The notes under the pieces were generated by a model. The model did no database searches and was not told the origin of the DNA. It was given only the letters and a program-made list of their open reading frames with translations. From a phage: a stretch of 64,000 nt of DNA. This document shows positions 1 to 56,283 of the stretch, in pieces. Position 1 is the first letter of the stretch, and the number at the start of each line of letters is the position of its first letter. Both the position numbers and the translations under genes were made by a program. The DNA lies in NCBI GenBank assembly GCA_004257845.1, contig GCA_004257845.1_4800.1; one strand, written 5' to 3'.

Positions 1-798
1 CGCGGCAGTCCGATAATCCCATCAAACGCTATTGCGATGGCCTACCGTCGTGAGATGAAAGGTCTTTGCTATGCGATGATTGATGACTATCAGGCAGGAA
101 TTTCAGAGTGGCTTGAAAAGAAGCAGGTGCAGAAGTTCTTTGCGCAAGACTCTGCTGATTCAACATTCCAAACTCTTATGAAACGTCTGCAGCTGAAATG
201 GGCAAAGGCGTTTGCTCGTGTTGGGTCGAAGATTGCCGCTGATTTTATCAAGTCGGTTGAAAAGGGCGCTACTTCTGCTACATTTGCAAGTCTTAAGTCC
301 GCAGGCATAGAAGCGCCAAAGGCCACATATAACAAATTCGTTGAGAACACTCTTAGAACAAGCGAGACGTTCAACACGACTCTAGTGACTAAGGTTGGCG
401 AGGATATTCACAACAGAGTGTACGAAGCAGTCATGCTTTCGCTGACTTCGCCCGACCCAGCCCAGCAAGGCACGTCAGGCATTCAGGCGGCGCTGCGAAA
501 CGTAAAACACTTCTCTGCAAAGAGAGTCGACTTAATCGCTAAAGACCAGACAAGCAAATTGTATTGCGTTCTAAGCGATGAAAGGATGCGACAGAATGGA
601 GTTGAAGAATTTGAATGGTCGCACTCAGGAGCAGGGAAGGAGCCGCGAATCTCTCATGAACATGTCGACGGAATGAGATTCAAACTTGATGACAAGCGTC
701 TATGGGAAGTGGGCGGAGAGTTGAAGTTCAAAAAGGGTGACATCGGCCCTCCTGGATGGGCGATACGCTGCAAGTGCAGAAAAATACCAATCATTTGA
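1..798 (+). CDS. head morphogenesis protein, Mu F / SPP1 gp7-like C-terminal domain (5' end outside window)
   Basis: Frame is open from position 1 (no stop before first ATG at 37), so the gene probably starts upstream; C-terminal motif ISHEHVDGMRF...PPGWAIRCKCR resembles the conserved H..DG...PP.H.NCRC signature of Mu F-like head morphogenesis domains. Confidence 0.6.
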   Translation, partial: RGSPIIPSNAIAMAYRREMKGLCYAMIDDYQAGISEWLEKKQVQKFFAQDSADSTFQTLMKRLQLKWAKAFARVGSKIAADFIKSVEKGATSATFASLKSAGIEAPKATYNKFVENTLRTSETFNTTLVTKVGEDIHNRVYEAVMLSLTSPDPAQQGTSGIQAALRNVKHFSAKRVDLIAKDQTSKLYCVLSDERMRQNGVEEFEWSHSGAGKEPRISHEHVDGMRFKLDDKRLWEVGGELKFKKGDIGPPGWAIRCKCRKIPII

Positions 799-805
799 GG
801 TCATT

Positions 806-1726
806 ATGACGATACCAATCAGCACGTTTCCTCTATCTGGACAAACGCCAGTATTACCTGCTGTATATGCGAACGGTTTGGCGATTGTTTCAGAATTTAC
901 ATCCGATAAAAATTTGATTGTTCCATTGAGTCCGCCATTGGCATCTGGATACAATTCAGTCGGACAATTCTTTATGATTGGCAATGATGGCGATTCGACC
1001 AGCAAGCCTAATCTGACATTGTCTGTACCTAAGATGGACATCACAGATGTTCAAACTGGCTTGACTGCATCAACAATCACCATTGCTTTTGGAGAAGCGG
1101 TGATTATAGGAATGGAGTCTGGAGGGTCCAAGAATGCTGTCGCCGTTAAGGTAGTCAAATCCAGCGACAACCAATACACGTTACCAGCTGCGACGGCTTC
1201 CGTTCTCGGCGGCGTCAAAATAGGAAGCGGAATAAGCGTCGCAGGTGACGGTACAATTAGCGTTACTCAATACTCATTGCCGATTGCGTCAGCATCTACT
1301 TTAGGCGGCGTAAAGGTCGGTACAACTCTATCAATTGATGGTTCCGGTGTGCTTAACGCAGCGGAAAGCACCGTCCAGAATGCCATGAACAGTGTTAGCA
1401 ATCCTCCAACCACTTTGGTTAATCTGGCAACCTTAAACCTTCCTGCAGGAAAGTGGCTTGTGACGGCAAGTCAGTTGACTGTCGCGACAGCAGGAATTCA
1501 AGCGAATACCGGAATTACAGCCAAATTGTCAACAAGCGATTCAGATATTACGGATGATGCATTTACGATGTCAGCTGGCATTCGGGCTGCAGGTCGTTTC
1601 GGCGGCAATATTCCAACAAAGATAATTACTCTTGCCGCGCCTGGCAACGTGTATCTAAACTATCAATGCACAGATGCGTTGACATCTACCGTTTACGGAC
1701 AGATCACCGCAATTAAGCTGAACTAA
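806..1726 (+). CDS. virion structural protein with internal tandem repeats (possible head fibre/decoration)
   Basis: ATG at 806 preceded by GAGG; internal repeat YTLPAATASVLGGVKIGSGISVAGDGTISV / YSLPIASASTLGGVKVGTTLSIDGSGVLN; position between head morphogenesis and capsid genes. Confidence 0.4.
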   Translation: MTIPISTFPLSGQTPVLPAVYANGLAIVSEFTSDKNLIVPLSPPLASGYNSVGQFFMIGNDGDSTSKPNLTLSVPKMDITDVQTGLTASTITIAFGEAVIIGMESGGSKNAVAVKVVKSSDNQYTLPAATASVLGGVKIGSGISVAGDGTISVTQYSLPIASASTLGGVKVGTTLSIDGSGVLNAAESTVQNAMNSVSNPPTTLVNLATLNLPAGKWLVTASQLTVATAGIQANTGITAKLSTSDSDITDDAFTMSAGIRAAGRFGGNIPTKIITLAAPGNVYLNYQCTDALTSTVYGQITAIKLN

Positions 1727-1736
1727 AGAGGAAGTT

Positions 1737-1874
1737 ATGCAAAAGATTATTCAGTCACGTTATGTTAAAGTGCGAAATATTAATTGCAACTCTTTGCTTT
1801 CTTGGAAATGGGCTGTTTACGACTCGATGTTAATTGGCGTTTTAGTTGCAGGAGTGCTATTTAATATTCACTGA
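1737..1874 (+). CDS. small hydrophobic protein (45 aa), hypothetical
   Basis: Not in ORF track (below 60 aa); ATG at 1737 preceded by AAAGAGGAAG; C-terminal hydrophobic segment SMLIGVLVAGVLF; stop TGA at 1872-1874. Confidence 0.3.
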   Translation: MQKIIQSRYVKVRNINCNSLLSWKWAVYDSMLIGVLVAGVLFNIH

Positions 1875-1904
1875 ATTCATCGGCAAAGGATTGCCGCGAG
1901 TTTT

Positions 1905-2190
1905 ATACGTATAATGACGTATCATACGTATCAAGTAAGTTATTGTTTTCAAAAGAATCTTACGGATGATACGGATGATACGCGTTGCCGCCGTACTATA
2001 TAGGAATTCAAATAAATTAATTTAAAATTATATATCTAATTTAATTTTATTTTTTTATAAACTCTTATATATGAAAAGTATCCGTATCATCCGTATCATC
2101 CGTAGCACACCAGTGATAGCGCGGCTTATACACCGATACGGATAAAAATACGCCTCATTTTATCCGTATCATCCGTATCACACTAATAAA
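1905..2190. repeat. iteron-like region 1: tandem 9-mers (ACGGATGAT) in direct and inverted orientation flanking an AT-rich core
   Basis: TACGGATGATACGGATGATACGCGT at 1961-1985; inverted copies GTATCCGTATCATCCGTATCATCCGTAG at 2078-2105 and TATCCGTATCATCCGTATCA at 2161-2180; AT-rich stretch about 2000-2070; box CGTATAATGACGTA at 1908-1921. Confidence 0.7.
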
Positions 2191-2237
2191 GGCGCGGCTA
2201 TATCGGTTGTTATACATATTCAAACCATAATTATTGT

Positions 2238-2266
2238 TTGCCTAAGTTTTTTTCATTAGATATAAT
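2238..2266 (+). promoter_or_regulatory. sigma70-like promoter (TTGCCT-17 nt-TATAAT) upstream of scaffold/capsid genes
   Basis: -35 TTGCCT 2238-2243, 17-nt spacer, -10 TATAAT 2261-2266, about 24 nt before start codon at 2290. Confidence 0.5.
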
Positions 2267-2289
2267 ACACAATACTTATTTGAGGGTGG

Positions 2290-3708
2290 ATGCGAATGCA
2301 AACGGCACGCGAAATTGACAAAAATGGATTCTTGACGATTATGGGTTGTCCAATTTCGTCATTTGGCATTTTTGATTATTCTGCTGGTCAAGTTGGTCTT
2401 GATGGTGATCCGAATCGCATCGTAAAAGTCTATCGCCCTGAGTCAGCGGTGAAAGACCCCGAAGCGATAGATTCATTCAAAAATATCCCTTTCATCGACA
2501 ATCACGAAATGCTTTCTGGATTTGAAGGTGATGAGGATAACACAGCACCCGAAGAGTATGGAGTTGATGGCGTTCTGACTGGCAATGTTTATTATGACAA
2601 GCCATGGATGCGCGGCGACCTTAAAGTGTTTAGCCGTCGTCTGAAGAAGGCCATTGATTCTGGAAAGGTTGACTTGTCTTTGGGCTATGACTGTGAATTC
2701 ATCATACAGTCTGGAGAGTTTGACGGGCAGCCGTATGAAGTGGTGCAGACAACTCTTCGCGGCAACCACATTGCTCTCGTGGACGTTGGTCGAGTACCAG
2801 GTGCACGGGTGCTGGATGGTCGTTGCTTTGACCATCTTTGTTTGACGACTGTAACACCATCCAACGAGGATTTAGACATGCCAAAACCGTTAAAAGGTAA
2901 AGCGCGTGATAATGCTGTTGAACAGCTGAAATCACTGATCCCTGCGCTCGAACAATTTCTGAATGAAGAGAGCACTGAAGCTGCTCATCAGGACGAAGTT
3001 GAAGTGAAAGCAGAAGAGAAGGACTCAACCGAAAATCGTGAAGAAGTAATGGTTGATCCAGAAGTCAAGGCAGAAGCAGAAGAAACCCCAGAAGGTGAAG
3101 AGAAGTTTGAAGTTGAAACTGAATCTAACGCTGGCGGCGAACTTCCGCAATTGATCAGCCAAATCGAAGCACTTATTGCAAAACTGAAAGGTGGCGCGGT
3201 AGGTGATGAAGAAGAAGTTGAAGCCGAAGTCAAAGACGAAGAAGTTGAAGTCAAGGCTGAAGATGTATCACCTTGCGACAAAGCTGAAGATGTGGTTAGC
3301 GGCCTGCAAAACAGCAACGTAAAGGGGGCTTCGGTCGAAAAAGATGACAAACCGACAAAAGCGGCGAAAGCGTCGCCAGGTCCAGCAAAAGGGGAACACT
3401 CAATGGCATCTGATTCAGCAGTTGCTGCTTTCTACGCTGATTCTGCTCGTAAGAATAGCCTCTACCAGCGCCTGTCTAAAGTTGTTGGTGCCTTTGATCA
3501 TGCAACTATGGACTCCAAGTCCGTAGCGAAATATGGCGCTAAAAAGTTAGGCTTGAAGTGCGTTGATGGCGCTGAGTTTGACGTGGTGGATAACTATCTG
3601 CGCGGCGTTGAACACGGTCAAAAACAGCGTGTAGTCGCAAAACAAAAGGCCGCTGCGGATTCTGCAGCAACTGACGAAGCATTTGAAGCTTGGTTGAAAG
3701 GGGAATAA
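2290..3708 (+). CDS. prohead scaffold / prohead protease-like protein
   Basis: Immediately upstream of capsid gene; long acidic low-complexity central region (EEVEVKAEEKD..., EEVEAEVKDEEVEVKAED) typical of scaffolding proteins; RBS GAGGGTGG before ATG. Confidence 0.45.
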   Translation: MRMQTAREIDKNGFLTIMGCPISSFGIFDYSAGQVGLDGDPNRIVKVYRPESAVKDPEAIDSFKNIPFIDNHEMLSGFEGDEDNTAPEEYGVDGVLTGNVYYDKPWMRGDLKVFSRRLKKAIDSGKVDLSLGYDCEFIIQSGEFDGQPYEVVQTTLRGNHIALVDVGRVPGARVLDGRCFDHLCLTTVTPSNEDLDMPKPLKGKARDNAVEQLKSLIPALEQFLNEESTEAAHQDEVEVKAEEKDSTENREEVMVDPEVKAEAEETPEGEEKFEVETESNAGGELPQLISQIEALIAKLKGGAVGDEEEVEAEVKDEEVEVKAEDVSPCDKAEDVVSGLQNSNVKGASVEKDDKPTKAAKASPGPAKGEHSMASDSAVAAFYADSARKNSLYQRLSKVVGAFDHATMDSKSVAKYGAKKLGLKCVDGAEFDVVDNYLRGVEHGQKQRVVAKQKAAADSAATDEAFEAWLKGE

Positions 3709-13013: not shown

Positions 13014-15194
13014 GTGTCTGACTCATTAGAAAAATTTGTGCTTCAATATACGGTGGACTTGAAAGAGTCCATCAATCGTCTTGAGCAATTGCAAGATAAG
13101 GTTGATCAGACAAACAAAAAGGCAAAATCCGCTGGCAAAGATTTCTCTGGAGCATTCAAAGATGTTTTTGGCGAGCTAAAGCCGCTTACTGGTGAGCTAG
13201 GGTCAATTGACGGAATACTTGCGCGGCTGACATATCGTTTTGCCGCGCTCGTTCCTGTTGTCGCAGGATTGGCCGTCGTCGTCAAATCCATCGTTGATGT
13301 TCGAAAAGAATACGAAGCGCAAAGAAAGCTTGGTTTTGAAGCCGGACTCTCTCCAATGGGTGTCGAACAACTACAACGACAGTTGAATGAAAGTTCAGGT
13401 GGCATCCTTGGCGCACAGGGGTCGCGAGACTTAATCAGCAAAGCTTCTAATCTGGCATTCAATGCATACACCAACCCCGATGTGATGAACAAGGACAACT
13501 TGTTGTTGAACAAGATGGGGACAAGTCCTTTCAACAGTAACGGCGGCATCAAAGACACGAATCAGCTGCTTGATGAAATTGGAACAAAGCTGAGAAGTGT
13601 GAATGAGCAAACCGCTCGTGCTATTGGTGCCCTGGCAGGTTTTACCGCCGATGAAGTCCGCGCCCTTCGTGAGCGCAACCAGTCTGTGAAAGAAAGCACG
13701 CGCATAAGCGACGAAGAAACCGCGAAGCTGCAAAGACAGCAAGCTGCTCTTGAGACTATACGAAATAGTATGGGGCAAATTCAAGAAGATTGGCGGCGTA
13801 TTGAGTTGGTAATTGGTGAAAATGTCATGCCTGCATTCTCGACTCTTGTCAGCAAAACTGCTGATACAGTCGAAGGATTCCAGATGATGTTTCAGAGAAT
13901 GTCTGACGGATGGAGCGAATTTGTCGACAACTTCATCGCTGACTTGAAACATCCGTTCGACAAGCAGGCCGCTGTCAACGAACGTCACGAAAGAGCGGTT
14001 GACCGATGGATCACCCAAATGGCTGATGGCGATGTTAAACGCCAAAGGAATCAAGAACAGAACGCCGCTGAACAACGTTCTGCACAGGCTCTTTTTACTC
14101 GTGACATAAATCTTTTTTCAAGTGCTGTGTCAACCTTTGCTGGCGTGATTGATGAGCGTCAAGCTTGGGCGGCATGGGCAGGTGAAATCGGGCGCAGCGC
14201 AGGGCAATCCGCGATGCCTGGAACACCAGCATTGAATACTGGCGCGACCGTAGGGAATAATCTTGGGTCAGGGAATCCGACAGCATATGACTCAATATAT
14301 GAGGAAGCTTCAAAACGCTATGGCATACCTGTAGCAATGATGAAGGCTGTAACTGAAGTCGAATCTGGATTCAATCCAAATGCTGTGAGCGGAGCAGGCG
14401 CGACTGGTTTGATGCAAATCATGCCTTCTAACTTCAAGGGTCTTGGTATCACAGACGGCAACGACCCTAGACAAAACATTATGGGCGGCGCTCAACTGTT
14501 GAAAGAGTATTTAAACGCTGCCAACGGCGATTGGAATCTTGCGCTGACGATGTATCACGGTGGCTACGACCGCAGCGGCTGGGGCAAGAATACACGCGCT
14601 TATCCTGGAAAGGTCATGGCTGCTCTCGACCGACAATCCAATGGTGAGTATGCCACGGCAGCGCCGCAAGGTGCACCAGTTACTCCAGTACTTAGCGGTA
14701 GCGGAGCGGAAGCACCAAAGGGCCGTTATGCACCAGTACAAGGTCAATCGCGCCAAACGGTGCAATACAGGCAATTGCAAGAAGCCATTGCAGGATACCT
14801 GAACGTACCAGTTGAGCAGTTGATGCAGGGACAAGTCAACAAAGGTGATATTGACTTTGCTCAAACTTACCTTAAGCTCGGAACGCAAAGGGATTATATT
14901 AAAAATATGCAGCTGGCTTCAACTCCAGGTGTAAGACCGAACATTCAAGCCGAAGCGATGAAAAACGCTCGTCTTGCTGCATTCCAACTTGAAGCGTTCC
15001 AGAAATATGGCGGCGACCTTTCCGCGAATAGTCGACCTGGTGGGCGTGATATTACTATGGGTCAGAAAAACGTTGTCATCAACGTCAACGGCGCCCAAGA
15101 CCCACGCAGCACGGCATTCGAAACGAAACGGGTGCTTGAACAAGATGATATCAACGACATAAACAACCTTACTGCTACACCTTTGAAGTGGTGA
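13014..15194 (+). CDS. tail tape measure protein with lytic transglycosylase (SLT) domain
   Basis: 726 aa, GTG start after AAGGGG; coiled-coil-like N-terminal region; SLT motifs EVESGFNPNAVSGAGATGLMQIMP and MYHGGY (about nt 14300-14580). Confidence 0.7.
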   Translation: MSDSLEKFVLQYTVDLKESINRLEQLQDKVDQTNKKAKSAGKDFSGAFKDVFGELKPLTGELGSIDGILARLTYRFAALVPVVAGLAVVVKSIVDVRKEYEAQRKLGFEAGLSPMGVEQLQRQLNESSGGILGAQGSRDLISKASNLAFNAYTNPDVMNKDNLLLNKMGTSPFNSNGGIKDTNQLLDEIGTKLRSVNEQTARAIGALAGFTADEVRALRERNQSVKESTRISDEETAKLQRQQAALETIRNSMGQIQEDWRRIELVIGENVMPAFSTLVSKTADTVEGFQMMFQRMSDGWSEFVDNFIADLKHPFDKQAAVNERHERAVDRWITQMADGDVKRQRNQEQNAAEQRSAQALFTRDINLFSSAVSTFAGVIDERQAWAAWAGEIGRSAGQSAMPGTPALNTGATVGNNLGSGNPTAYDSIYEEASKRYGIPVAMMKAVTEVESGFNPNAVSGAGATGLMQIMPSNFKGLGITDGNDPRQNIMGGAQLLKEYLNAANGDWNLALTMYHGGYDRSGWGKNTRAYPGKVMAALDRQSNGEYATAAPQGAPVTPVLSGSGAEAPKGRYAPVQGQSRQTVQYRQLQEAIAGYLNVPVEQLMQGQVNKGDIDFAQTYLKLGTQRDYIKNMQLASTPGVRPNIQAEAMKNARLAAFQLEAFQKYGGDLSANSRPGGRDITMGQKNVVINVNGAQDPRSTAFETKRVLEQDDINDINNLTATPLKW

Positions 15195-15198
15195 TAAT

Positions 15199-16071
15199 TT
15201 GAAAAAGAGAATCCTTAAAGTCACCTTATCTATGCCGGATGGCACAAGCCAAGTGCTTGATGAAGGATTGATGCTCAGATGCCGAATCAAAAAGGCAGCA
15301 CTTTCCGTGCAGAATAAGGCCACAATCGAAGTTGCAGGATTGACAGGGTACTTGAGAGAGTACCTGCTTTCCAACTTCACGGCATTCAACAAACGTCTGC
15401 GTGATCAAGGCCAGTTGGCGGAGAACTATGTCAACGTGACTATTGAAGCTGGGTACAGAGAGGGGAACGTAATCAGCAGCAACTTGGTATACAAGGGACA
15501 GGTGACGACTGTCGAGATAACAGCGCCGCCGCCGAACATCGTCATACGCATCACTTGCTACACCAACCAGATAAACAGGACTAAGTTTATCACTCAAGCT
15601 GCACCGTCAAACCCAACCTTCAAAGAGTTTGTGGAGTGGTCAGCAAAGCAAATGGATATTGATACTGTTATATGCGATACGTCGATTAACAATCAACGCC
15701 TTGTGAACCCAGGCCGAACAACATATGTTGCAGCTGCCTTGCTGCTTGAGATTCAGAACTATCAAAGGAACTCTATTGCGGCATATATTGATGATGATAC
15801 GCTAATCGTCAAGGATAAAGACAAAATTCTGAATCCAGAACAGATAACGGTGATTGAGGAATTTGTCGGAATACCGATGTGGAACGAGTGGGGCGCTGAC
15901 TTCACTTGCATGTATAACGCGGATTTGAAGCTTGCCCAAGGTGTGAAATTCAAATCAGTCTTAAACCCAAGCTTGAACGACACCACATTCGTCATCATGC
16001 AACTTGAATATGATTTAGCAAGTCGTGATGACATATTTACGGTGACGGGCGGCGTTGCACCATCGGCCTAA
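15199..16071 (+). CDS. distal tail / baseplate hub protein (putative)
   Basis: ORF directly after tape measure gene (TTG start in track); call by position. Confidence 0.35.
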   Translation: MKKRILKVTLSMPDGTSQVLDEGLMLRCRIKKAALSVQNKATIEVAGLTGYLREYLLSNFTAFNKRLRDQGQLAENYVNVTIEAGYREGNVISSNLVYKGQVTTVEITAPPPNIVIRITCYTNQINRTKFITQAAPSNPTFKEFVEWSAKQMDIDTVICDTSINNQRLVNPGRTTYVAAALLLEIQNYQRNSIAAYIDDDTLIVKDKDKILNPEQITVIEEFVGIPMWNEWGADFTCMYNADLKLAQGVKFKSVLNPSLNDTTFVIMQLEYDLASRDDIFTVTGGVAPSA

Positions 16072-38937: not shown

Positions 38938-39786
38938 TTATTCTGCTTGATCGTCGTGCTCTTCGGCATCTGCTTCGGATTCAACATCGATGAACTCGAT
39001 GTGGCCCATCTCTTCCAGTTTGCTCAGGTAAGAGCGAACTGAAGCGCCAAACAGCTGATCTTTAACTTTTTCACCCAGCTCGTCGATAGACTGCGGCTGA
39101 CCGATTTCACCTTCTTTGATCGCAGCCAGTACGCGACCACGGGTGGAATGTTCTTGCGGCTGGCTCAGGCCGTTTCCGGTGTAAACAAAGTGAGTTGCTT
39201 TAGCGCGACGCTGACCATTAGCTTTCTTGGCGGCTTTACGCTCTGCAATCGCTTTGCGACGCTCTTCAGCTTCTTTCTTACGCTGTTCTTTCTGTTGTTC
39301 TGCAGCTTCTTTCGCCGCAATCTTAGCAGCTTCACGCTCTGCCTTGCGTTTCGCTTTCGCTTCTTCTTTAGCCTTTTCTTTTTCGGCTTTCGCTTCTGCA
39401 CGGGCCTGATCACGTTCAGCCTTTTTCGCCGCAGCTTGTTCAGCTTTCAGGCGCTTGGCTTCTTCTTTCGCCTTTGCCTTTTCAATTTCTTTAGCGGCTT
39501 TAGCGGCTTCACGCTCTGCCTTCTTAGCAGCAGCCTTTTCAGCACGCTCTGCAGCCTTCTTAGCGGCTTCTTCAGCACGCTTCTGAGCCTTCTCGTCAGC
39601 AGCCTGCTTGCGTTTCAGCGCAGCTTCTTCACGCTTGGCTTGTTTTTCCTGCTCACGCTTCTGGCGTTTTTCTTCGGCTTCTTTCTTTTTAGCCAGGCGT
39701 TTTTCTTCAGCCACGCGACGACGTTCTGCTGCAGCTGCTTGTTTTTCTTCTTTAGATAATACTTTGATTGCTTCGGCCATATTCAC
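38938..39786 (-). CDS. Lys/Ala/Glu-rich low-complexity protein with C-terminal globular domain (histone H1-like composition)
   Basis: About 190 aa of KAE-rich repeats (KKAAERAEKAAAKKAEREAAKAAKE...) then non-repetitive C-terminus; strong terminator downstream. Confidence 0.5.
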   Translation of the reverse strand: MNMAEAIKVLSKEEKQAAAAERRRVAEEKRLAKKKEAEEKRQKREQEKQAKREEAALKRKQAADEKAQKRAEEAAKKAAERAEKAAAKKAEREAAKAAKEIEKAKAKEEAKRLKAEQAAAKKAERDQARAEAKAEKEKAKEEAKAKRKAEREAAKIAAKEAAEQQKEQRKKEAEERRKAIAERKAAKKANGQRRAKATHFVYTGNGLSQPQEHSTRGRVLAAIKEGEIGQPQSIDELGEKVKDQLFGASVRSYLSKLEEMGHIEFIDVESEADAEEHDDQAE

Positions 39787-39939: not shown

Positions 39940-41124
39940 TTAACGCGCTTTCAAATCACGGTACACGGTCAGATTCTTCTTAGCACGGGTGATAGCTGTG
40001 TACATCATCTTGGAGTACGGAACGCCGCGCAAGATTTCTTCCAGCACGCACACATTGTCCCACTCGCTGCCTTGCGATTTGTGCACCGTGATGACATAGC
40101 CATAATCCATCCCGCCAACAGCGCGTTGGGCCTCTTTGCGCACTTCCTGATCAGTAGAGAAGGAAAGAGGATTAATCTTAACCTTTATATCTTTGCCATC
40201 GGTAAGCGAGCGCAAATTGACATACATGATTTCATTGGACTCGTCTTCGTCCCTTTCAAAGTCCGGCACTGGTTCATAGCTAATAACAATCCCTTGCTCG
40301 CCATTACAGAATCCTGGCCCGTGCTGGTTGAAGGTGCAAATAACTTTCTCGCCGATTCCTGGCATTGGCGTTATACGTCCGCTCACTTGCCGTAATAATG
40401 AATTCCATTTATCTTTGGTGCTATTATAGGAGCAAATAATTTGATCATCTTCGCCCATGAATTTCTTCAATGCAGTAACGCGCGGCGATTCTGCCAGAAC
40501 TTTTACATCGTCGTATTCACGCGGAGGAAGGCGGTTGCCTTGGCGCACGAAGAAGGAGGCGCGGATGATGTTGGACTCTTTCCCTTGGCGCATGATTTCT
40601 GTTAACAGTACGTCAACGGCTTCTTCGGTAAAGTAGGCGGCGGCTTTTACCGGAGGGACTTGTCCAATGTCGCCTAATGCCAGGACAGGGATGCGGTGAT
40701 CAAGAAGGCGCTCTGTGTCCCACTCGCCAACCATTGACGCTTCATCAAGAACAACAAGGAGCGGCTTTTCGTCCAGCTTTGACTTTCTCGAGAATATTGG
40801 CTCATTGTCGTCATTTACGCCGCGCACGTTATAGATGAACTGGTGAAGGGTCTTAGCTCCACGACAGCCTTTTTGCTTTAATCGGCTTGCAGCCTTTCCG
40901 GTAGGCGCAATATAGATAGCGCCGTACTCACCGACACAGCGGCGCACAATCTCGCGAGCAATAGAGGTTTTACCAGTCCCTGCATAGCCAGCGATGAAAA
41001 ACACGCGCTTCGTCGTTTTACCGTCCTGCAATCGCTTGTACCATGCAACGGCCTTCTCGATGGCATCGATTTGTTGCGCGTTAAACTGAATCACTGGCTC
41101 ATCATTAAATTCTGGAATGTTCAT
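39940..41124 (-). CDS. SF1 DNA helicase, RecD/Dda-like
   Basis: Walker A GYAGTGKTS, VVLDEASMV, C-terminal TVHKSQGSEWD. Confidence 0.75.
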   Translation of the reverse strand: MNIPEFNDEPVIQFNAQQIDAIEKAVAWYKRLQDGKTTKRVFFIAGYAGTGKTSIAREIVRRCVGEYGAIYIAPTGKAASRLKQKGCRGAKTLHQFIYNVRGVNDDNEPIFSRKSKLDEKPLLVVLDEASMVGEWDTERLLDHRIPVLALGDIGQVPPVKAAAYFTEEAVDVLLTEIMRQGKESNIIRASFFVRQGNRLPPREYDDVKVLAESPRVTALKKFMGEDDQIICSYNSTKDKWNSLLRQVSGRITPMPGIGEKVICTFNQHGPGFCNGEQGIVISYEPVPDFERDEDESNEIMYVNLRSLTDGKDIKVKINPLSFSTDQEVRKEAQRAVGGMDYGYVITVHKSQGSEWDNVCVLEEILRGVPYSKMMYTAITRAKKNLTVYRDLKAR

Positions 41125-41450
41125 TATAACTCCACTACGCTTTCAAGGTCCAGATATACTGGAATAAAATGGCAATCTTCTTTTCGTTCAAACATCTCAC
41201 CATCAACATGGCTGAAGAAAACAGTCGTGTTTGGTATCTTCCATCCTTTCTCGTCGCGCACTAAGTACGCCATGGATTCAACAGGGATGTACAGAGATAC
41301 CGGATTTGCGGCAAAAATAAATTTGATTCTGTCTGGTTGACCCAGGAATCGCATGATTGTTAGGCTTGAATTCAATCTTGTATTAAGGAAGGACTCAACG
41401 ATTCCGACGTGTGTTGCACGTTCGCGTTGCTTCGTCTCTTTTTCGTTCAT
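41124..41450 (-). CDS. hypothetical protein
   Basis: ORF; start overlaps helicase; minus-strand promoter upstream. Confidence 0.4.
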   Translation of the reverse strand: MNEKETKQRERATHVGIVESFLNTRLNSSLTIMRFLGQPDRIKFIFAANPVSLYIPVESMAYLVRDEKGWKIPNTTVFFSHVDGEMFERKEDCHFIPVYLDLESVVEL

Positions 41451-41488
41451 TTCAGGCGACCTTTGTTAGTGCGGAAATATTTTCTGAT

Positions 41489-41517
41489 AGTATAATTGCA
41501 GATATAGTATAAAGCAA
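41489..41517 (-). promoter_or_regulatory. sigma70-like promoter on minus strand (TTGCTT-17 nt-TATACT)
   Basis: Minus-strand -35 TTGCTT (plus 41512-41517), -10 TATACT (plus 41489-41494); divergent from + strand promoter. Confidence 0.4.
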
Positions 41518-41553
41518 AGTAAATCGAAATTGTGAACTAAATGGTAAATATTG

Positions 41554-41581
41554 TTGACTTTGTATCACTCAATATTATACT
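41554..41581 (+). promoter_or_regulatory. sigma70-like early promoter (TTGACT-16 nt-TATACT)
   Basis: -35 TTGACT 41554-41559, -10 TATACT 41576-41581, upstream of RBS GAAGGAAAG and ATG at 41611. Confidence 0.5.
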
Positions 41582-41610
41582 GCAGGTATTGATCACCGAA
41601 GGAAAGAAAG

Positions 41611-42693
41611 ATGGCTAGTTTAAGAGAAGAAGCAAAAATAATTGAAGAGTTTTTAACAGAACTCCAAAGAGGCATCCCAGAAGATGAGCGCGTCATGACG
41701 GTGTTTGCTCCTGAAGCAACGGTGCAGACCGACGAGCGCGGCAAGAAGATCAACAGCAGCTTCTGGCCTAAGCCTTGGAAGTTGGGCAAGCCGCTCATGC
41801 AGCACCAAAACGGCTATGCATGCATCAGTTCAATGCGTAAGTCTCCCAACCCAAAGACGGGTGAGATGCGATACTGGCGTACAGAGTCGGCCTTTGGTCA
41901 CGGCATGGCGATGATGGTCGACGACATCGGTCACGGTAAAGGTTCCAAAGGCGATTTAGATTTGGAATTCTTTTTTGAGCGACTGAAGCCGACTGTCATC
42001 GTCGAGACTTCACCGAACAACCACCAGCTTTGGTACTTCTTTAAAGAACCGATTGACCATCTTATTCAGTTCAAAGCGTTCCTTGGGTCTTTCGTTAACA
42101 TGGTACTCAAGAAGGGCGGCGACAACACGATTAAAGACGTAACGCGCGTGGGTCGTGTTCCTGGGTGCATCAACAACAAGCGTGTGACTCACGACGGCCC
42201 CTATAAATATGTCGATGAGAACGGCGACCCGTTCCGCTGCCGACTTGTCCATGCAGACTACTCATTGCGCTACACCATCGAAGACATTTGTCAGGCATTT
42301 GGCTTTCACGTCGTCATGCCACAAAATCGTGAGATTCAAATTGACGTCGATGAATACAAGTATGATGCTGTTTGGTATAAAATAGCCCAGCAGATTCTAT
42401 CGCGCAACAAGATGGGTGAAGGGTCTGATGGCGACGTCATCGAGAATATGTCAGGCAAGTGCCGCATAATCTGTCCTTGGGGTGAAGAACACACCAACGG
42501 CGACCCGTATGGCGCTTACTTTCGCGGCCCTATCCCTGGTGCAGAACATGAGTTTGTGTTCGGTTGCGCCCACGACTGTCACCGGAAAGGGGAAGGCAAG
42601 AAAGGTTGGACTGCTTTTGTTGAAGCAATCGTCATGCCTTATATTGAGAATCAACTTGACATGATAAATCGTCGTGCAGGTGGCATAAAATAG
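41611..42693 (+). CDS. AEP-type primase-polymerase-like protein with C-terminal zinc-binding motif
   Basis: MMVDDIGHG (acidic motif), ETSPNNHQLWYFF (SxH-like), C-terminal Cys/His cluster CPWGEEH...GCAHDCH. Confidence 0.45.
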   Translation: MASLREEAKIIEEFLTELQRGIPEDERVMTVFAPEATVQTDERGKKINSSFWPKPWKLGKPLMQHQNGYACISSMRKSPNPKTGEMRYWRTESAFGHGMAMMVDDIGHGKGSKGDLDLEFFFERLKPTVIVETSPNNHQLWYFFKEPIDHLIQFKAFLGSFVNMVLKKGGDNTIKDVTRVGRVPGCINNKRVTHDGPYKYVDENGDPFRCRLVHADYSLRYTIEDICQAFGFHVVMPQNREIQIDVDEYKYDAVWYKIAQQILSRNKMGEGSDGDVIENMSGKCRIICPWGEEHTNGDPYGAYFRGPIPGAEHEFVFGCAHDCHRKGEGKKGWTAFVEAIVMPYIENQLDMINRRAGGIK

Positions 42694-42751
42694 TTTGCTT
42701 TTATTTTCATAGCAACTATAATCATTTTATGAACTGAAGCAGAGGTGATTT

Positions 42752-42898
42752 ATGCAAAGCGAAGAATTGAAAATCGAGGTTGAATGTCTGTTAAAGTCGT
42801 TAGAACCTAAACCAGCAGAGCTTCCGACCCTTCAAGGAGTCATGGCTCACCATCAAGCGGCTGCGGCCAAACACTACTCTGAATTTGTTAAGGAATAA
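42752..42898 (+). CDS. small protein (48 aa), hypothetical
   Basis: Not in ORF track; ATG 42752 preceded by AGAGGTGA; stop at 42896-42898 adjacent to next gene start. Confidence 0.35.
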   Translation: MQSEELKIEVECLLKSLEPKPAELPTLQGVMAHHQAAAAKHYSEFVKE

Positions 42899-42900
42899 AG

Positions 42901-43191
42901 ATGAACGAACCAAAAATGATGACCGTTGAAGAAGCGCAAAAGCTTCGTGTTGAAAACGAGCTTAAGCTTGTCAACCAGATTCTTCCTTTGTTTGCAGGCT
43001 ACGCAGTGGAGGAAGTTGTTGGGGCAATCCTTAACGTATCCACGCATGTCGCTATGAATCTTCAGGCCGAGCGATTCAACACACTGCTGACTATTAAAGA
43101 CCTTACCGTCAGCGCAACGTTCACTGTTGAGCCAGTCAATTTTGACGAAGCTTCAGCCGCGATTCAACAGCAAAGAGATCAAGAGGTGTAG
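42901..43191 (+). CDS. hypothetical protein
   Basis: ORF in early array. Confidence 0.4.
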   Translation: MNEPKMMTVEEAQKLRVENELKLVNQILPLFAGYAVEEVVGAILNVSTHVAMNLQAERFNTLLTIKDLTVSATFTVEPVNFDEASAAIQQQRDQEV

Positions 43192-43192
43192 C

Positions 43193-43456
43193 ATGGGTGC
43201 TTTCCGTAACGAGTTCATCTGGAACGTTACCAGCAATCTCTCGACTTGTCCTAACTGTGCGAGCGATGTTATCAAGGTGCGGCAGCATCGCAACGCGGAG
43301 AAGGGTGCATGGGAAGATGGCGACCTTGTAGAGTGCCAGTGCTGCTCTCATGAAGGTGTTGTTGAGCTTCAAGCTGGTGAAGGTTGCCCACCAGCAGAGC
43401 GCACAGCACGCGTTGAATGGGATGCAACAGACTCCATTGGTGATCCTCAACAGTAA
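43193..43456 (+). CDS. four-cysteine zinc-ribbon protein, hypothetical
   Basis: ATG 43193 after AGAGGTG; CPNC...CQCC. Confidence 0.4.
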   Translation: MGAFRNEFIWNVTSNLSTCPNCASDVIKVRQHRNAEKGAWEDGDLVECQCCSHEGVVELQAGEGCPPAERTARVEWDATDSIGDPQQ

Positions 43457-43474
43457 ATTTAGGTATAGATACTT

Positions 43475-43579
43475 ATGAAAGCCGTAAAGAAATACACATT
43501 AATCATTTCCCTTGTCATCATCCTGGGGCTATTATATGTATTGGATATGGCATATTATTTGGCAGGGGTGAGTGGATGA
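43475..43579 (+). CDS. small hydrophobic peptide (34 aa), hypothetical
   Basis: Not in ORF track; MKAVKKYTLIISLVIILGLLYVLDMAYYLAGVSG; stop overlaps next ATG (ATGA). Confidence 0.3.
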   Translation: MKAVKKYTLIISLVIILGLLYVLDMAYYLAGVSG

Positions 43580-43866
43580 ATATTGTAATTCTTTATGGTG
43601 AAAATATCAGCGATGACGACATCGAAGTTGCCGTTGATGTTTACGGTATCGATGAGGTGAAACGTGTTGAAGAAATTAGTGGCGCAAATCTCAATGAGAT
43701 TGTCAAAGAGGCTGGCTGTCCTTCGGAAGAGATTCTGGTGGTTACTAACGATGACCTGTCTTCTATGGATCATTTGCGCCGCATCTTCACCGATTGCCAA
43801 TACCTTCATGCTGTTCAATCAGTAAACAAATTGAGAAAGGCATACGCCAACCAATTTCCTTGCTGA
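43576..43866 (+). CDS. hypothetical protein
   Basis: ORF in early array. Confidence 0.4.
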   Translation: MNIVILYGENISDDDIEVAVDVYGIDEVKRVEEISGANLNEIVKEAGCPSEEILVVTNDDLSSMDHLRRIFTDCQYLHAVQSVNKLRKAYANQFPC

Positions 43867-44002
43867 TAGTTCACCAGTTATATTGCTTTAAATTGAGTTT
43901 TACTATATTAATATACAACGCCAGATTTCTGGCGTTTATTTACCGCACCCTGAAAGGATATATCCATGCAACAATATAACAAAGCCGTATCAGGAGGATT
44001 AA

Positions 44003-45673
44003 ATGTCAATTAATAATGACAATCTTCCAGAGGATACAGGTGATGAATTTGGTGCAATCTTTGACGAAATTCAAGATGCAGGTGTTTCGGAAGAAATGCA
44101 GGCAGCAGAGCAGCAAGGCACCAGAGCTAAAATCAGCCTTCAACACAAAGCTGTTGAAAAAGATTCAGAGCGCATGGAATGCTACGGTGAAGAAGACTTG
44201 GTTGAAAGAGCACGCTTGCTCGCCTCACTTCAGGTAATCAAGTTCCCTCACTACAAGCCTACCAAAGATGACTTCGTTCTACAGGCAGACCGGACGAGTG
44301 ACATGAACCGTTATGCGGTTTTCGACGCGTTGTTTGATAAGGGAAGTGGCATTGTTCCATTCCCTCACAAAGATACTTTTCGTGGGCGCTTAGTCGACCA
44401 TCGCGGCGAAACATTCACTGACCGTACCTTGGAAGTCACAGAGATAGTCGCTGCTGTCGACGCAGCAGGGTTGTCCAACCCAAACTCACGTCAGGTCGCT
44501 CAATCCTATAAGGAATGGGCCATGCGTTATCAGCGTGACGACCTGATGGACTTCTTCTACAAGAAGCTGCCTGAATGGGACGGTACTGCGCGCATCGAGA
44601 AATACCTTATCGAGCTATTCCGACCGTTCGATACAGAGTTAAACCGACAAATCGGTGTGTATTTTTGGCTATCGCTCTACAACCGCCTGACCAACCCTGG
44701 CTGTCAAGCGCCAATCTCCATCGCGCTAATCGGCGGCCAGAACGCAGGGAAGAGTTATTTTAGCAAGCTGCTTTGCGAAGCTATTATGAACGACCGCCAC
44801 GCAACACCGATTCCGTTGAACTTAGCCGCGCAAAACTTCAACCCGTTCTTGCGAGCTATTACGGGTCGCTCAATTATCGCGAACGTTGGCGAGATGACAG
44901 GCTTTAAAAAGGCCGACATCGAAAACATGAAAGCATTCCTGACTAAGACGGAAGATGACCTGGACTTCAAATTTGAAGATACGCAGGTTAAACCACGCCA
45001 GTGGATTGCCATCATGGACGGCAACGAATACGCAGGCATGCAGCGTGACGATACGGGCAACCGTCGTGTTTACCCTATCTTTGTTGGCCAACTTGCTGAC
45101 AAGGACGGGCAACCGAACTGGTCTAAAGACTTCCAAGCTGACCTTTCCACTTTGAAAGAAGATGTTTGGCAGCTTATGGCTGAGTGCGCTGCGTGGATGG
45201 AGAAGCACGGCGAAGCAGGCTATAACGCGTTTGTTGGTGAAACATCTCGCATGCTTACTGAGTTCAGTAAAAACGAAATGGAACGTGCACGCGGCGTTAT
45301 CCGTGATGAGATGGTCGACAACGACCTTGTTGAAGTCGTCATCACCGCGCCTTATGACCGACATCACAGCGGACGCTGGCACATCACAAGTGGTGCTATT
45401 GCTATGGGATTCAGAGCGAAGTGCGGCAAGTCGCCTTTCTCTCGTACCCTTGCGCCGCACATGTCGAAGCTTGGCTTTGAGCCTGCGACCTATCGCAACC
45501 AGCGCGGCTACTTTACGCCGCTGATTAAGAATGAAGCAGGGGAATACATTTCTGATCTGATGACCATCTTAGCGTATCTTATCCGCGATGAGTCTGACCC
45601 TGAAGATATTGAATTCTTGAAGAAGGTTATTGAGCGTAAACGTTCTTTGGGAAGAGATAAGGATGAATTCTGA
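44003..45673 (+). CDS. P-loop NTPase, primase-associated/D5-like helicase family (putative)
   Basis: Walker A LIGGQNAGKSYFSKLL; Walker B-like IAIMDGNE; RBS AGGAGG. Confidence 0.5.
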   Translation: MSINNDNLPEDTGDEFGAIFDEIQDAGVSEEMQAAEQQGTRAKISLQHKAVEKDSERMECYGEEDLVERARLLASLQVIKFPHYKPTKDDFVLQADRTSDMNRYAVFDALFDKGSGIVPFPHKDTFRGRLVDHRGETFTDRTLEVTEIVAAVDAAGLSNPNSRQVAQSYKEWAMRYQRDDLMDFFYKKLPEWDGTARIEKYLIELFRPFDTELNRQIGVYFWLSLYNRLTNPGCQAPISIALIGGQNAGKSYFSKLLCEAIMNDRHATPIPLNLAAQNFNPFLRAITGRSIIANVGEMTGFKKADIENMKAFLTKTEDDLDFKFEDTQVKPRQWIAIMDGNEYAGMQRDDTGNRRVYPIFVGQLADKDGQPNWSKDFQADLSTLKEDVWQLMAECAAWMEKHGEAGYNAFVGETSRMLTEFSKNEMERARGVIRDEMVDNDLVEVVITAPYDRHHSGRWHITSGAIAMGFRAKCGKSPFSRTLAPHMSKLGFEPATYRNQRGYFTPLIKNEAGEYISDLMTILAYLIRDESDPEDIEFLKKVIERKRSLGRDKDEF

Positions 45674-46320
45674 TGAATAAAGCAATCAACATCGCTAAAT
45701 TCTTTCAACATCTTGGTGAACTGAACAAAGAGAGTGATGTTCACGGCGAAGAAATGAACCGGATGATTTCAACAGTGTTGCGCGGCTTTGGTTATGATAA
45801 GGACTCAATCACTTGCAAGCGCACAAAGCTTGTCGATGAGTCTTATCTTTACTACGTAGAGCTGCGCATTGGTAAAGATGTAATGATCATTGACCCTAAA
45901 CTGGAAGGGGCACACTGTTTTGGCGCTCATCCTCGTGCGAGTGAATTCAAGGGTCGCGGTCGCAACCGAATCCAGAAGCTTGATGACGCAGGCGACTTGA
46001 ACATCGCAATGTTCCTTAAAGAGTTCCTTGCGCTACCGAAGGTTGCATCATCCACGGGCCGTGATGACCCTTGCAAGATTGGATTCCGAACTAAAGATTT
46101 GCGCAATGCGCTACGCAAGAAGGGATTTGTGCCTTCTTATGACAATGTCGCCGCGCTGATGGCTTCAATGGAGGAAGCTGAAGCGATGGACAAGGTACGC
46201 GGCTATTTCCTGAATACAGGCTTCACCATGTATGAATGGCACACGAAGGGATTGACTGTCGCCGACTTCATCTATTCATTAGAGCAGAAGTATGTACGCA
46301 ATATGCAGGCCACAGGATAA
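45673..46320 (+). CDS. hypothetical protein
   Basis: ORF; ATGA overlap with previous gene. Confidence 0.4.
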   Translation: MNKAINIAKFFQHLGELNKESDVHGEEMNRMISTVLRGFGYDKDSITCKRTKLVDESYLYYVELRIGKDVMIIDPKLEGAHCFGAHPRASEFKGRGRNRIQKLDDAGDLNIAMFLKEFLALPKVASSTGRDDPCKIGFRTKDLRNALRKKGFVPSYDNVAALMASMEEAEAMDKVRGYFLNTGFTMYEWHTKGLTVADFIYSLEQKYVRNMQATG

Positions 46321-46359
46321 TCATCATCAAAATATTTGCTTTTCTGACGAGGTGATATT

Positions 46360-46584
46360 ATGATTAATTTAGACAGGATTGAGTTAGCACTTAGTACCTT
46401 AATCAAATATTACCAGTTTGCTTTTAAGGCTAGTTTGTTTGGCTTGTTCAATCCTCATCAAGCAGCAAAGGCGCGAAGCAATGCCAACCGCCTGCGCTGC
46501 ACTGGTATAGTCATCCATGACCGGATATTGACAGAGGGTAGATTCAGCCATGAATACACAGTGGAGAATAACAAATCAACGTAG
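46360..46584 (+). CDS. hypothetical protein
   Basis: ORF preceded by GAGGTGA. Confidence 0.35.
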   Translation: MINLDRIELALSTLIKYYQFAFKASLFGLFNPHQAAKARSNANRLRCTGIVIHDRILTEGRFSHEYTVENNKST

Positions 46585-54312: not shown

Positions 54313-54604
54313 GCGTATAATGACGTAAGATTTGGACCTATCCGTAGTTCACTCCACACACTTCTATGGTGCGCCGCGACTGGGTTCAGTGGTACATCTT
54401 ACGGATGATACGGATGATACGCGTCGCCGCTATACTTTATACAACTTTGAAAAAACAATTAACTCCATTTTGAATTAATTTAAATTAATTTTTTTCTACA
54501 TCCTCATACTTATACTAAACTTATATTTATACGTATTATCCGTAAGATATAAGTAAAAACAAAGACTTGCGGCAATACGGATGATACGTCATGATACGCT
54601 TCGA
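54313..54604. repeat. iteron-like region 2 (diverged paralog of region 1)
   Basis: GCGTATAATGACGTA at 54313-54327; TACGGATGATACGGATGATACGCGT at 54400-54424; AT-rich stretch about 54430-54530; inverted TATTATCCGTAAGAT at 54533-54547; ACGGATGATACGTCATGATACGC at 54578-54600. Confidence 0.7.
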
Positions 54605-54710: not shown

Positions 54711-56283
54711 ATTTGCACTATGATTTGTGTACGTTTATAGCCATAATGAACATCAATCTGCACTTGAATATAATGTCCATCCATTGTATAATTCACACTA
54801 TTAATTTGCACTATGGGATTTTGCACTATGAGTCAAGATTATGTAGCGATGCCTGAAGACTTTGAAGACCCGCGATTCGCAGAGCACAATCAGGCTTTAT
54901 TCGATGAGTTCATTGACCTTGTTATTCAGGGCCATGACATGCGCGCAGCTTTTGCACTAGTATTTGGAATGGAAGTTGCAACGGATAACTACACTGGCCA
55001 GCGAATCCTTTGCGCACAACGCAATCCGTACTACAAAATGCGCTTCAAAAAGCGTATGGAAGAGATGCCACTCAAGGATTTGTGGAGCGTAAAAGGTGCA
55101 ATTCACAATTTGGTCAAGCTTGTGCGTGATCCAGAAGTCGCGGCGTCAGCCAAGCTTAATGCTATTCGTGAACTGAATATCATCTACGGCATCACGATGA
55201 TTGATGAAAACGGCAATAGTAAAATGGGCCGTTCCATGGACGATTTCTACAAGGATTTTGGAGAGGCAGCCAAAGAAGGTGAGCAATTCTCCCGCCACTA
55301 GCCAATTTGCACTATAAAACGGCCCTAGAACACATTTTCTCCACTTCTAGGGCCATCGGTAATACGACGGGGAAGGTTACAACCGTAAACGCGTTAGAAA
55401 GTGTATTATTATAAGTCATCTTTTAGTCACTTTACGTAACAATTTACGACCTTCAACCGTCCAATCGAACGACTCCACCAGCAGATTTGCACTATAACCT
55501 AAGACGATGCGCCCTTTCTCGTTATCGACCCGCCAACAAGTCTCGAATAGCATTCGATTTGCACTATTAACTATTGCCGCAACTCGCGTAGGATAAGCGC
55601 AATTTGCACTATGGTCGTAAAGGGATAAGGTGCGACCACTTCCGATGGACAACGTAGCGATGAGAATGAGTGTATTCATAAGCCACCAATTTGCACTATG
55701 AAAAGCGACCCCGAAGGGCCGCCATTCGATTAGATAATCTGGAAGGTGTAGGACTTGTTGCCGAACTCGAAGTTTAAGCGTCCAGCTTCCTTAAGCTTCA
55801 TGCGGAAGCGAATGTGCTTGCTATCCGGTAAGCCCAGCGCGGCGAACGCTACGCGGACCGATTTGAACTCGCCTACACCCTCGACCATGACACCGTTACG
55901 GGTAAGACGCTTTTGCGCCACTTCCTTATTATCCCAACTTTTTGCAATACCTTCGCTATTCGAACGGCGATGGGATGGAGTTCCATTTTGCACTACGCAA
56001 TTTGCACTATCGTTTAAACCGCTCTTAACGAAGGCTTCATACTCTTCGTCGGTCATCGCGTCGAGTTCTTCCTGGGTCGGCTCGGACTTTTTAACGACCG
56101 CACGCGCCTTATGCGTTTTTACATCGTTGGGCACTTCCTCGCGCGACTTCGCGTCTGGGATGGGCGACTCGTTGGACGGCTCATCGAGCGCGTTTAAGGA
56201 CTCGATTAACGCTATTACGCGAGTCTCGGCGGTCCGGCGGTCCGCAAATTTTTTGATCGGCTTCGAACCGGAATTTGCATTAT
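54711..56283 (+). repeat. dispersed same-orientation array of 12-bp motif AATTTGCACTAT (at least 11 copies including variants)
   Basis: Copies at about 54711, 54803, 54819, 55304, 55485, 55557, 55601, 55688, 55985, 55999, 56272, all on the + strand; several lie antisense within minus-strand ORFs. Confidence 0.75.
54813..55301 (+). CDS. hypothetical protein
   Basis: ORF; start could be ATG 54813 or 54828 (no clear SD for either); followed by hairpin 55321-55354 (10-bp stem GGCCCTAGAA / TTCTAGGGCC). Confidence 0.4.
   Translation: MGFCTMSQDYVAMPEDFEDPRFAEHNQALFDEFIDLVIQGHDMRAAFALVFGMEVATDNYTGQRILCAQRNPYYKMRFKKRMEEMPLKDLWSVKGAIHNLVKLVRDPEVAASAKLNAIRELNIIYGITMIDENGNSKMGRSMDDFYKDFGEAAKEGEQFSRH

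Follow-up and report, generated by a model that had tools for sequence, protein, structure and literature searches.

An archaeo-eukaryotic primase gene and a VapE/VirE-family superfamily-3 helicase gene as a candidate split primase-helicase module of a Wifcevirus myophage

Archaeo-eukaryotic (AEP) DNA primases typically pair with superfamily-3 (SF3) helicases, and the VirE proteins are predicted replicative helicases. We analysed two genes of these kinds, ORF A (primase) and ORF B (helicase), carried by a 64,000-nucleotide stretch of phage DNA (NCBI GenBank assembly GCA_004257845.1, contig GCA_004257845.1_4800.1), the whole of which is called the window below. Their pairing agrees with the AEP-SF3 rule. 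The nearest described counterparts belong to the Pseudomonas phages of the genus Pbunavirus, where PBanzai_075 and PBanzai_077 of phage Banzai and gp71 and gp73 of phage antinowhere are orthologues of ORF A and ORF B, with about 60-64% identity for the primase and 44% for the helicase. Gene order is shared, as is a neighbouring replication module with DnaE, DnaQ, Dda-like and SNF2-like genes. In a 2025 paper on the Pbunavirus Banzai, the orthologue of ORF B is likened to the self-loading helicases of SaPIs and named as prime candidate for replication initiator.

In SaPI1, a Staphylococcus aureus pathogenicity island, primase and helicase are also encoded by separate genes (Pri and Rep1), as they are in the window. 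Pri co-purifies with Rep1, and the winged-helix domain of the SaPI Rep proteins needs no loader to bind iterons and melt the origin. The SaPIs are satellites, whereas the phage that carries the present pair is virulent, has a genome of 68 kb and encodes its own polymerase. Two other groups are informative. The primase RepB' of RSF1010 (PDB 3H20 / 3H25) carries a PriCT-1 helix bundle at its C-terminus and lacks a zinc site, in contrast to ORF A; its recognition sites are the ssiA and ssiB hairpins and its partners are the helicase RepA (SF4) and the iteron binder RepC, none of which has a counterpart here. In the fused AEP-(PriCT/ZnBD)-VirE-WH primase-helicases of the PrimPol-PV1 supergroup, such as that of cyanophage S-2L, a single protein holds what is divided here between two genes 1.3 kb apart. 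The S-2L PrimPol is thought to be its phage's only polymerase, whereas the present phage has a DnaE-type replicase.

The region 41000-46400 of the window matched Escherichia phage vB_EcoM_WFC (Wifcevirus) over its full length with 98.3% identity, and 28 further Wifcevirus records with 93-98% identity. Matches of the same kind were obtained with the first 25 kb of the window. By these identities the window is a Wifcevirus genome, that is, the genome of a 68 kb virulent myovirus of E. coli and distant kin of Pbunavirus. The family assignments given below are correct but already known, since both genes are public at up to 100% identity and annotated as replication proteins, their families have been described and the orthologous pair has been discussed. 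A protein 100% identical to ORF A is available (P0001), and a gene of Bas101 annotated 'DNA primase' has a product 100% identical to ORF B.

ORF A, the first gene of a long plus-strand cluster, matched the Pfam family PF16793 (RepB_primase) over residues 40-229 with an E-value of 6e-36 (124.4 bits, cut-off 24.3) and phrog_4861 'DNA primase' with an E-value of 1e-197; the corresponding RefSeq product, gp074, is likewise labelled 'DNA primase'. Searches of the PDB with the single sequence returned only marginal RepB' matches (E 0.39-0.75), and a profile search reached E 0.08 over 29 residues only, so that fold comparison was needed. The AlphaFold2 model, built on 29 homologues (predicted local distance difference test, pLDDT, 85.7), had the AEP (RRM-like) catalytic fold, and the closest solved structure was the S-2L PrimPol domain. 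Motif I corresponds to D104-D105, motif II to T133..N137..Q139, motif III to D171 and motif IV to R182. In an alignment of 29 sequences D104, D105, D171, R179 and R182 were invariant, and the patterns VDD[IV]G, [TS]S..N.Q and GGD were each present in 120/120 homologues. The spacing D171-x10-R182 is that of D146 and R157 in S-2L. Q139, also invariant, is a Gln where His is expected in motif II; the segment VETSPxNxQ aligns with VETSPKNYQ of RepB', and replacement of the motif II His by Gln is a signature of the RepB' family (Kazlauskas 2018, PMC5862659). An earlier note on this DNA, made from its letters alone, had noticed AEP/prim-pol-like motifs in this gene, and this was borne out by the family match, the motif counts and the modelled fold.

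The same note had pointed to a Cys/His zinc cluster, which proved to be real. Its two halves, C288-P-x4-H294 and G-C319-x-H321-D, were found in 119/120 and 120/120 homologues, respectively, and position 324 was Cys in 105 and His in 14 of the 119 homologues with the whole motif. The zinc ligands are probably C288, H294, C319 and C/H324. H321 is likewise invariant, and the 'extra' cysteines of this phage, C284 and C323, are not conserved. The domain has the fold of a zinc ribbon resembling the zinc-binding domain of DnaG and T4 gp61. ORF A is without the C-terminal PriCT-1 helix bundle of the prototype RepB', and S-2L PrimPol has PriCT-2 at the position of the zinc domain. This primase joins a RepB'-type catalytic domain with a zinc domain in place of the helix bundle. 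The isolated zinc domain gave no Pfam match at E-values up to 10, and neither did the isolated N-terminal and C-terminal domains of the helicase; an NCBIfam search returned nothing for ORF A or ORF B.

ORF B matched Pfam PF05272 over residues 189-407 (E 1.6e-28, 100.1 bits, cut-off 25), phrog_4630 (E 3e-254) and, by sequence comparison with the PDB, entry 7PDS (E 4e-11), the cryo-EM structure of SaPI1 Rep1 with DNA. The same entry was the best Foldseek match of the ORF B model (pLDDT 84.1), with an E-value of 5e-17 and template modelling (TM) scores of 0.51/0.61, in an alignment of about 480 columns that takes in the whole target chain. SaPI1 Rep1 is thus the best full-length structural match, its C-terminal tier included, as well as a sequence match, although sequence identity is only about 17%. 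The runners-up, with E-values spanning about 1e-7 to 1e-5, were NrS-1 (1e-7), D5/E5 (about 1e-6), SaPI5 PriRep5 (2e-6) and also C962R of African swine fever virus (ASFV). The poxvirus D5/E5, ASFV C962R and NrS-1 proteins are AEP-primase-associated and have the SF3 ATPase fold and motifs in common with ORF B (Foldseek E about 1e-6 to 1e-7), but they belong to a different Pfam family, match much more weakly than SaPI1 Rep1 and have the helicase fused to the primase. The Walker A motif G244-x-Q-x2-GKS251 lies at nt 44732-44755; G.Q..GKS was found in 114/120 homologues and TGNRR in 111/120. In the 29-sequence alignment G244, Q246, G249, K250 and S251 were invariant, and so were E297 (Walker B), N341 (motif C), R348, R354 and R355. 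A Walker A/B NTPase 1.3 kb downstream of the primase gene, with small genes between, had been proposed before and was recovered at that place. Its likeness to D5-type helicases held: the protein has an SF3 fold and D5/E5 is among its Foldseek matches. The D5 family proper was not matched, with VapE/VirE found instead. DUF5906 remained below threshold (22.1 bits, cut-off 27.6) and no D5_N match was obtained in Pfam.

Behind the ATPase core, the model predicts helices at residues 436-448, 463-474 and 480-489, a strand at 459-462 and a wing of two strands at 493-497 and 500-504. The order of these elements, H-S-H-H-S-S at residues 436-504, is the winged-helix pattern in this predicted structure, and the full-length Foldseek alignment to SaPI1 Rep1 includes the C-terminal domain of Rep1. 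In the C-terminal extension that follows, confident modelling ends at about residue 530: across the last four 10-residue blocks pLDDT drops from 69 to 36, with values below 50 at residues 530-532 and 551-556. The terminal Phe (F556 in ORF B) is present in 115/120 homologues, and the last 20 residues have a mean net charge of -3. Acidic Phe-type tails of T7 gp4, T7 gp2.5 and E. coli SSB dock partner proteins. By analogy, and speculatively, the tail of ORF B might dock the polymerase or SSB.

GenBank and RefSeq label ORF B 'DNA primase' in Wifcevirus as well as in Pbunavirus records, so that these genomes seem to hold two primases. This label is a misnomer inherited from the fused primase-helicases, and the second 'DNA primase' should read SF3 helicase.

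We hold it highly probable that ORF A is the primase and ORF B the replicative helicase of this phage; this confidence covers their identity and role, and the more speculative steps below lie outside it. Taken together, the two genes form the split primase-helicase (primosome) module of a Wifcevirus myophage. That they would supply unwinding and priming, as had been proposed, follows from homology and from a gene context beside the DnaE-type polymerase module. By analogy with the SaPI Rep proteins, ORF B would form a hexameric SF3 ring whose ATPase tier lies between an N-terminal collar and a C-terminal winged-helix tier, and homology suggests that this ring would unwind the phage DNA in the 3'->5' direction. 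The catalytic domain of ORF A, aided by the zinc ribbon that stands in place of the RepB' helix bundle, would make primers, which the phage DnaE-type polymerase and DnaQ-type exonuclease, encoded in the divergent operon, would extend. Primase and helicase may also be in physical contact, as expected from the co-purification of their SaPI1 homologues. Homologues of both proteins occur together on many phage contigs of 65-74 kb and in Pbunavirus, Pantoea, Serratia, Erwinia, Burkholderia and Xanthomonas phages; linkage of the two genes was found in two related genomes (L008 and L009) and in the Pbunavirus antinowhere. No DnaG or DnaB homologue and no other primase is present among the annotated genes of the whole genome.

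Table 1. Features of the primase-helicase locus and of the iteron modules, in window coordinates (., no strand), with the identities of protein domains to the relatives L008 and L009 (three genomes in all, the window included).
Feature	Position	Strand	Basis or remark	Identity to L008	Identity to L009
ORF A, RepB'-family AEP DNA primase, 360 aa	41611..42693	+	Pfam, PHROG, RefSeq		
ORF A, AEP catalytic domain, residues ~26-235	41686..42315	+	motifs I-IV	87%	67%
ORF A, C-terminal zinc-binding domain, residues ~268-335	42412..42615	+	Cys/His cluster	97%	90%
ORF B, VapE/VirE-family superfamily-3 (D5-related) helicase, candidate replicative helicase, 556 aa	44003..45673	+	Pfam, PHROG, Foldseek		
ORF B, ATPase core, residues ~191-380	44573..45142	+	invariant columns, motif counts	87%	69%
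ORF B, predicted C-terminal winged-helix domain, residues ~431-510	45293..45532	+	model secondary structure, Foldseek; fastest-diverging structured domain	56%	36%
ORF B, C-terminal helical extension (H519-528, H533-550) and disordered tail from residue 551	45533..45670	+	model		
Sigma-70-like promoter TTGACT-16 nt-TATACT, 10/12 matches	41554..41581	+	best match in region		
Small ORFs, five to six, unknown function, between primase and helicase	42752..43979	+	ORF listing		
215-aa ORF, start codon overlaps helicase stop codon by 1 nt	45673..46320	+	position kept in relatives	55%	27%
Iteron module 1 (no demonstrated tie to primase/helicase)	1961..2104	.	repeat search		
Iteron module 2 (no demonstrated tie to primase/helicase), architecture like module 1	54399..54588	.	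repeat search		
TerS	54825..55301		gene annotated terS	64%	48%

The SaPI1 analogy, with co-purification of Pri and Rep1 and a Rep winged helix that melts the origin without a loader, makes it possible that ORF B also acts as initiator. ORF B may be self-loading in the same manner, its winged helix reading the ACGGATGAT iterons and the AT-rich spacer between them being melted; we regard this step as speculative and rather doubtful. The repeat itself occurs in 9 exact copies, in two clusters, against 0.5 copies expected and a maximum of 3 in 100 shuffles. The iterons of the earlier note are therefore real, yet their proposed connection to origin recognition by the pair was not supported: no link to ORF A or ORF B could be computed, the zinc domain is too conserved to follow the changing iterons, and module 2 lies at the genome terminus. 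Both clusters are at least 8.7 kb away from the primase and helicase genes, whereas the SaPI ori is directly downstream of rep. The inverted iterons around an AT-rich centre of the SaPI ori recur in the layout of both modules, with iterons of 9 nt here and of 5-6 nt in SaPIs. GC skew tracked the direction of transcription and located no origin.

In module 1, TACGGATGATACGGATGATACG and its complement make up a perfect inverted repeat of 22 nt, with two copies of ACGGATGAT in each arm and a spacer of 100 nt with 81% AT. No 100-nt stretch of the window exceeds the 84% AT reached in this module, and the two 100-nt stretches with the highest AT content in the window are both contained in the spacers of the two modules, one in each. 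Module 1 occupies a non-coding gap of about 415 nt in the head-gene cluster, with the head maturation protease gene downstream. This module is kept across the genus over its full length with 95-100% identity; module 2 has 89-99% identity, with full-length matches in only 12/29 records. Position 1 of the Mansfield genome, for which PhageTerm predicted a direct terminal repeat (DTR) of 1-3673, maps to the middle of the module 2 spacer at about 54467. The WFC record begins at the same site, with gp001 at 361-834 in both genomes, and a terminal repeat of 3.7 kb has been reported for WFC (PMC6563267). In window coordinates the repeat extends from about 54467 to about 58365. These maps place module 2 at the physical left genome end, at the predicted start of a DTR of about 3.7 kb.

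The architecture of the modules is kept in relatives, while the repeat sequence changes: L008 has GATACGT and GATGCGGAT, L009 has TATCCGCAAGA, and the AT core remains recognisably similar. Pbunavirus has a syntenic non-coding gap upstream of the head protease gene, with a 49-nt imperfect inverted repeat and short repeats that differ from, and are unrelated to, those of the window. Host DnaA was considered as iteron binder and dropped; TTATCCGCA, the repeat of L009, differs from a DnaA box at a single position, but ATCATCCGT, the repeat of the window, is not box-like. Among the domains of the pair, the primase zinc domain is an unlikely iteron reader because it is the most conserved part of either protein while the iterons differ among relatives. 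Divergence of the helicase winged helix is compatible with iteron reading. The covariation of iterons and domains over the three genomes, though suggestive for the winged helix, fits TerS and the 215-aa ORF as well, as all three diverge, and all three are possible iteron binders.

Several observations weigh against the proposed working of the pair. The divergence of the winged helix could equally reflect relaxed constraint. There are no iterons beside the helicase gene, unlike in the SaPI replicons, since the downstream sequence is the coupled 215-aa ORF followed by further coding sequence; the nearest cluster, at 54399, is 8.7 kb downstream of the helicase gene, and its spacer is the genome terminus beside terS. 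The phage also encodes two further helicase-like proteins, a Dda-like SF1 helicase and an SNF2-like translocase, with which ORF B may divide the labour.

Since module 2 lies at the genome end and beside terS, a packaging role is a serious rival to the origin role. Primase and helicase would then be what they appear to be, with the ACGGATGAT modules acting as packaging or genome-end determinants read by the small terminase, and the helicase would be loaded in some way that needs no recognition of a specific sequence, such as on a transcription R-loop or a recombination intermediate. We tentatively count this as a real possibility. It is favoured by two genomes, finished independently of each other, whose left end falls within the AT-rich module 2 spacer, by the start of terS about 360 nt downstream of this end, and by the helicase gene having no adjoining iterons. 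In the pac site of phage P1, repeats flank the cleavage zone, a layout that the modules would share in this reading. However, module 1 has the same, even more perfect architecture and lies 15.5 kb away in the head-gene cluster, where no terminus has been reported. A syntenic module is also kept in Pbunavirus, which is reported to be headful-packaged and circularly permuted, without fixed ends, in contrast to Wifcevirus with its terminal repeats. An arrangement in which inverted iterons enclose the genome's most AT-rich 100 nt is, furthermore, a classic origin layout too.

A reading that combines both roles, in which the winged-helix tier of the VapE helicase would recognise the ACGGATGAT modules as SaPI-like origins and the module with the terminal-repeat start would double as origin and genome end, appears improbable to us. 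If it were true, one cis element would couple the initiation of replication to genome-end formation, and the infection cycle of these phages, reported to be very short, might owe something to such coupling. The choice between origins, packaging sites and a double function for the iteron modules could be made by experiment, as these relatives of therapeutic Pbunavirus phages now grow on engineered E. coli K-12 with restored O-antigen and cryptic prophages removed, the host that yielded the BASEL isolates.

The assignment of ORF A as replicative primase has its own alternative, namely that the protein is mainly a primase-polymerase for repair, damage tolerance, gap filling or special DNA. The nearest solved structure, the S-2L PrimPol domain, does have polymerase activity, and the conserved Y69 of ORF A may equal a steric-gate residue favouring dNTPs. 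We nevertheless find such a role very unlikely, because a DnaE-type replicase and its proofreading subunit are encoded by the phage itself, no other primase is annotated, tight linkage with the SF3 helicase gene extends across genera, and RepB' itself is a dedicated primase. For ORF B, a P-loop NTPase that is not a helicase, such as a terminase or packaging ATPase (which the earlier note had named as the outcome that would speak against it) or a defence or counter-defence NTPase, is hardly credible: the historical family name 'virulence-associated protein E' and the GenBank label 'DNA primase' could be quoted for it, but every top structural match is a hexameric SF3 replicative helicase, SF3 motifs A, B and C and the arginines are conserved, no terminase match was obtained in Pfam, PHROG or Foldseek, and TerL is annotated as a separate gene elsewhere, for which reasons a terminase was rejected.

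ORF A as primase and ORF B as helicase lie in the following neighbourhood. The promoter-like site of Table 1, in a divergent intergenic region of 160 nt, ends 30 nt upstream of the primase start codon and is followed by a GGAAAG ribosome-binding site; the overall number of matches in the promoter scan was not above that of shuffled controls. The gap of 1,309 nt between the two genes contains the five to six small ORFs, one of which encodes a Cys-rich zinc-ribbon protein of 87 aa (43193-43456). This protein accounts for their sole PHROG match, phrog_4446, of unknown function. The small ORFs are present in Wifcevirus and near relatives and absent in Pbunavirus; since the Pbunavirus pair is separated by only one small gene, the 1.3 kb block is, from this comparison, a lineage-specific insertion. 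RefSeq annotates a terminator at about 43919-43934, between the small genes and the helicase gene; this site was not recovered in our own terminator scan. Coupled to the helicase gene, the 215-aa ORF evolves fast (Table 1) and had no match in Pfam, PHROG, NCBIfam or PDB; its product may be a helicase partner or a specificity factor.

The divergent minus-strand operon encodes a Dda-like SF1 helicase, ThyX, a polynucleotide kinase, the DnaE-type polymerase, the DnaQ-type exonuclease, an SNF2-like protein, MazG and a ligase. This replication-gene operon also contains a gene (38938-39786, minus strand) for a protein of 282 aa, nearly all of it Lys/Glu/Ala-rich low complexity, which matches phrog_4765 and is labelled 'TolA protein' in ECML-117.

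Two other groups of repeats were observed in the terminal repeat. The motif TTTGCACTA (often ATTTGCACTATG) occurs in 11 copies, all on the plus strand, within 1.3 kb (54712-56001). It was also found in L008 (about 15100-16000) and L009 (about 14050), its sequence being kept in distant relatives, unlike that of the iterons, and it may be a promoter or operator element. In Mansfield (L010), short direct repeats, ATCATTATGC twice and ATCATTCGC, occupy positions 3555-3600 (about 58250 in the window) and have a loose resemblance to the ATCATCCGT iteron; the terminal repeat reaches its right boundary some 80 nt further on.

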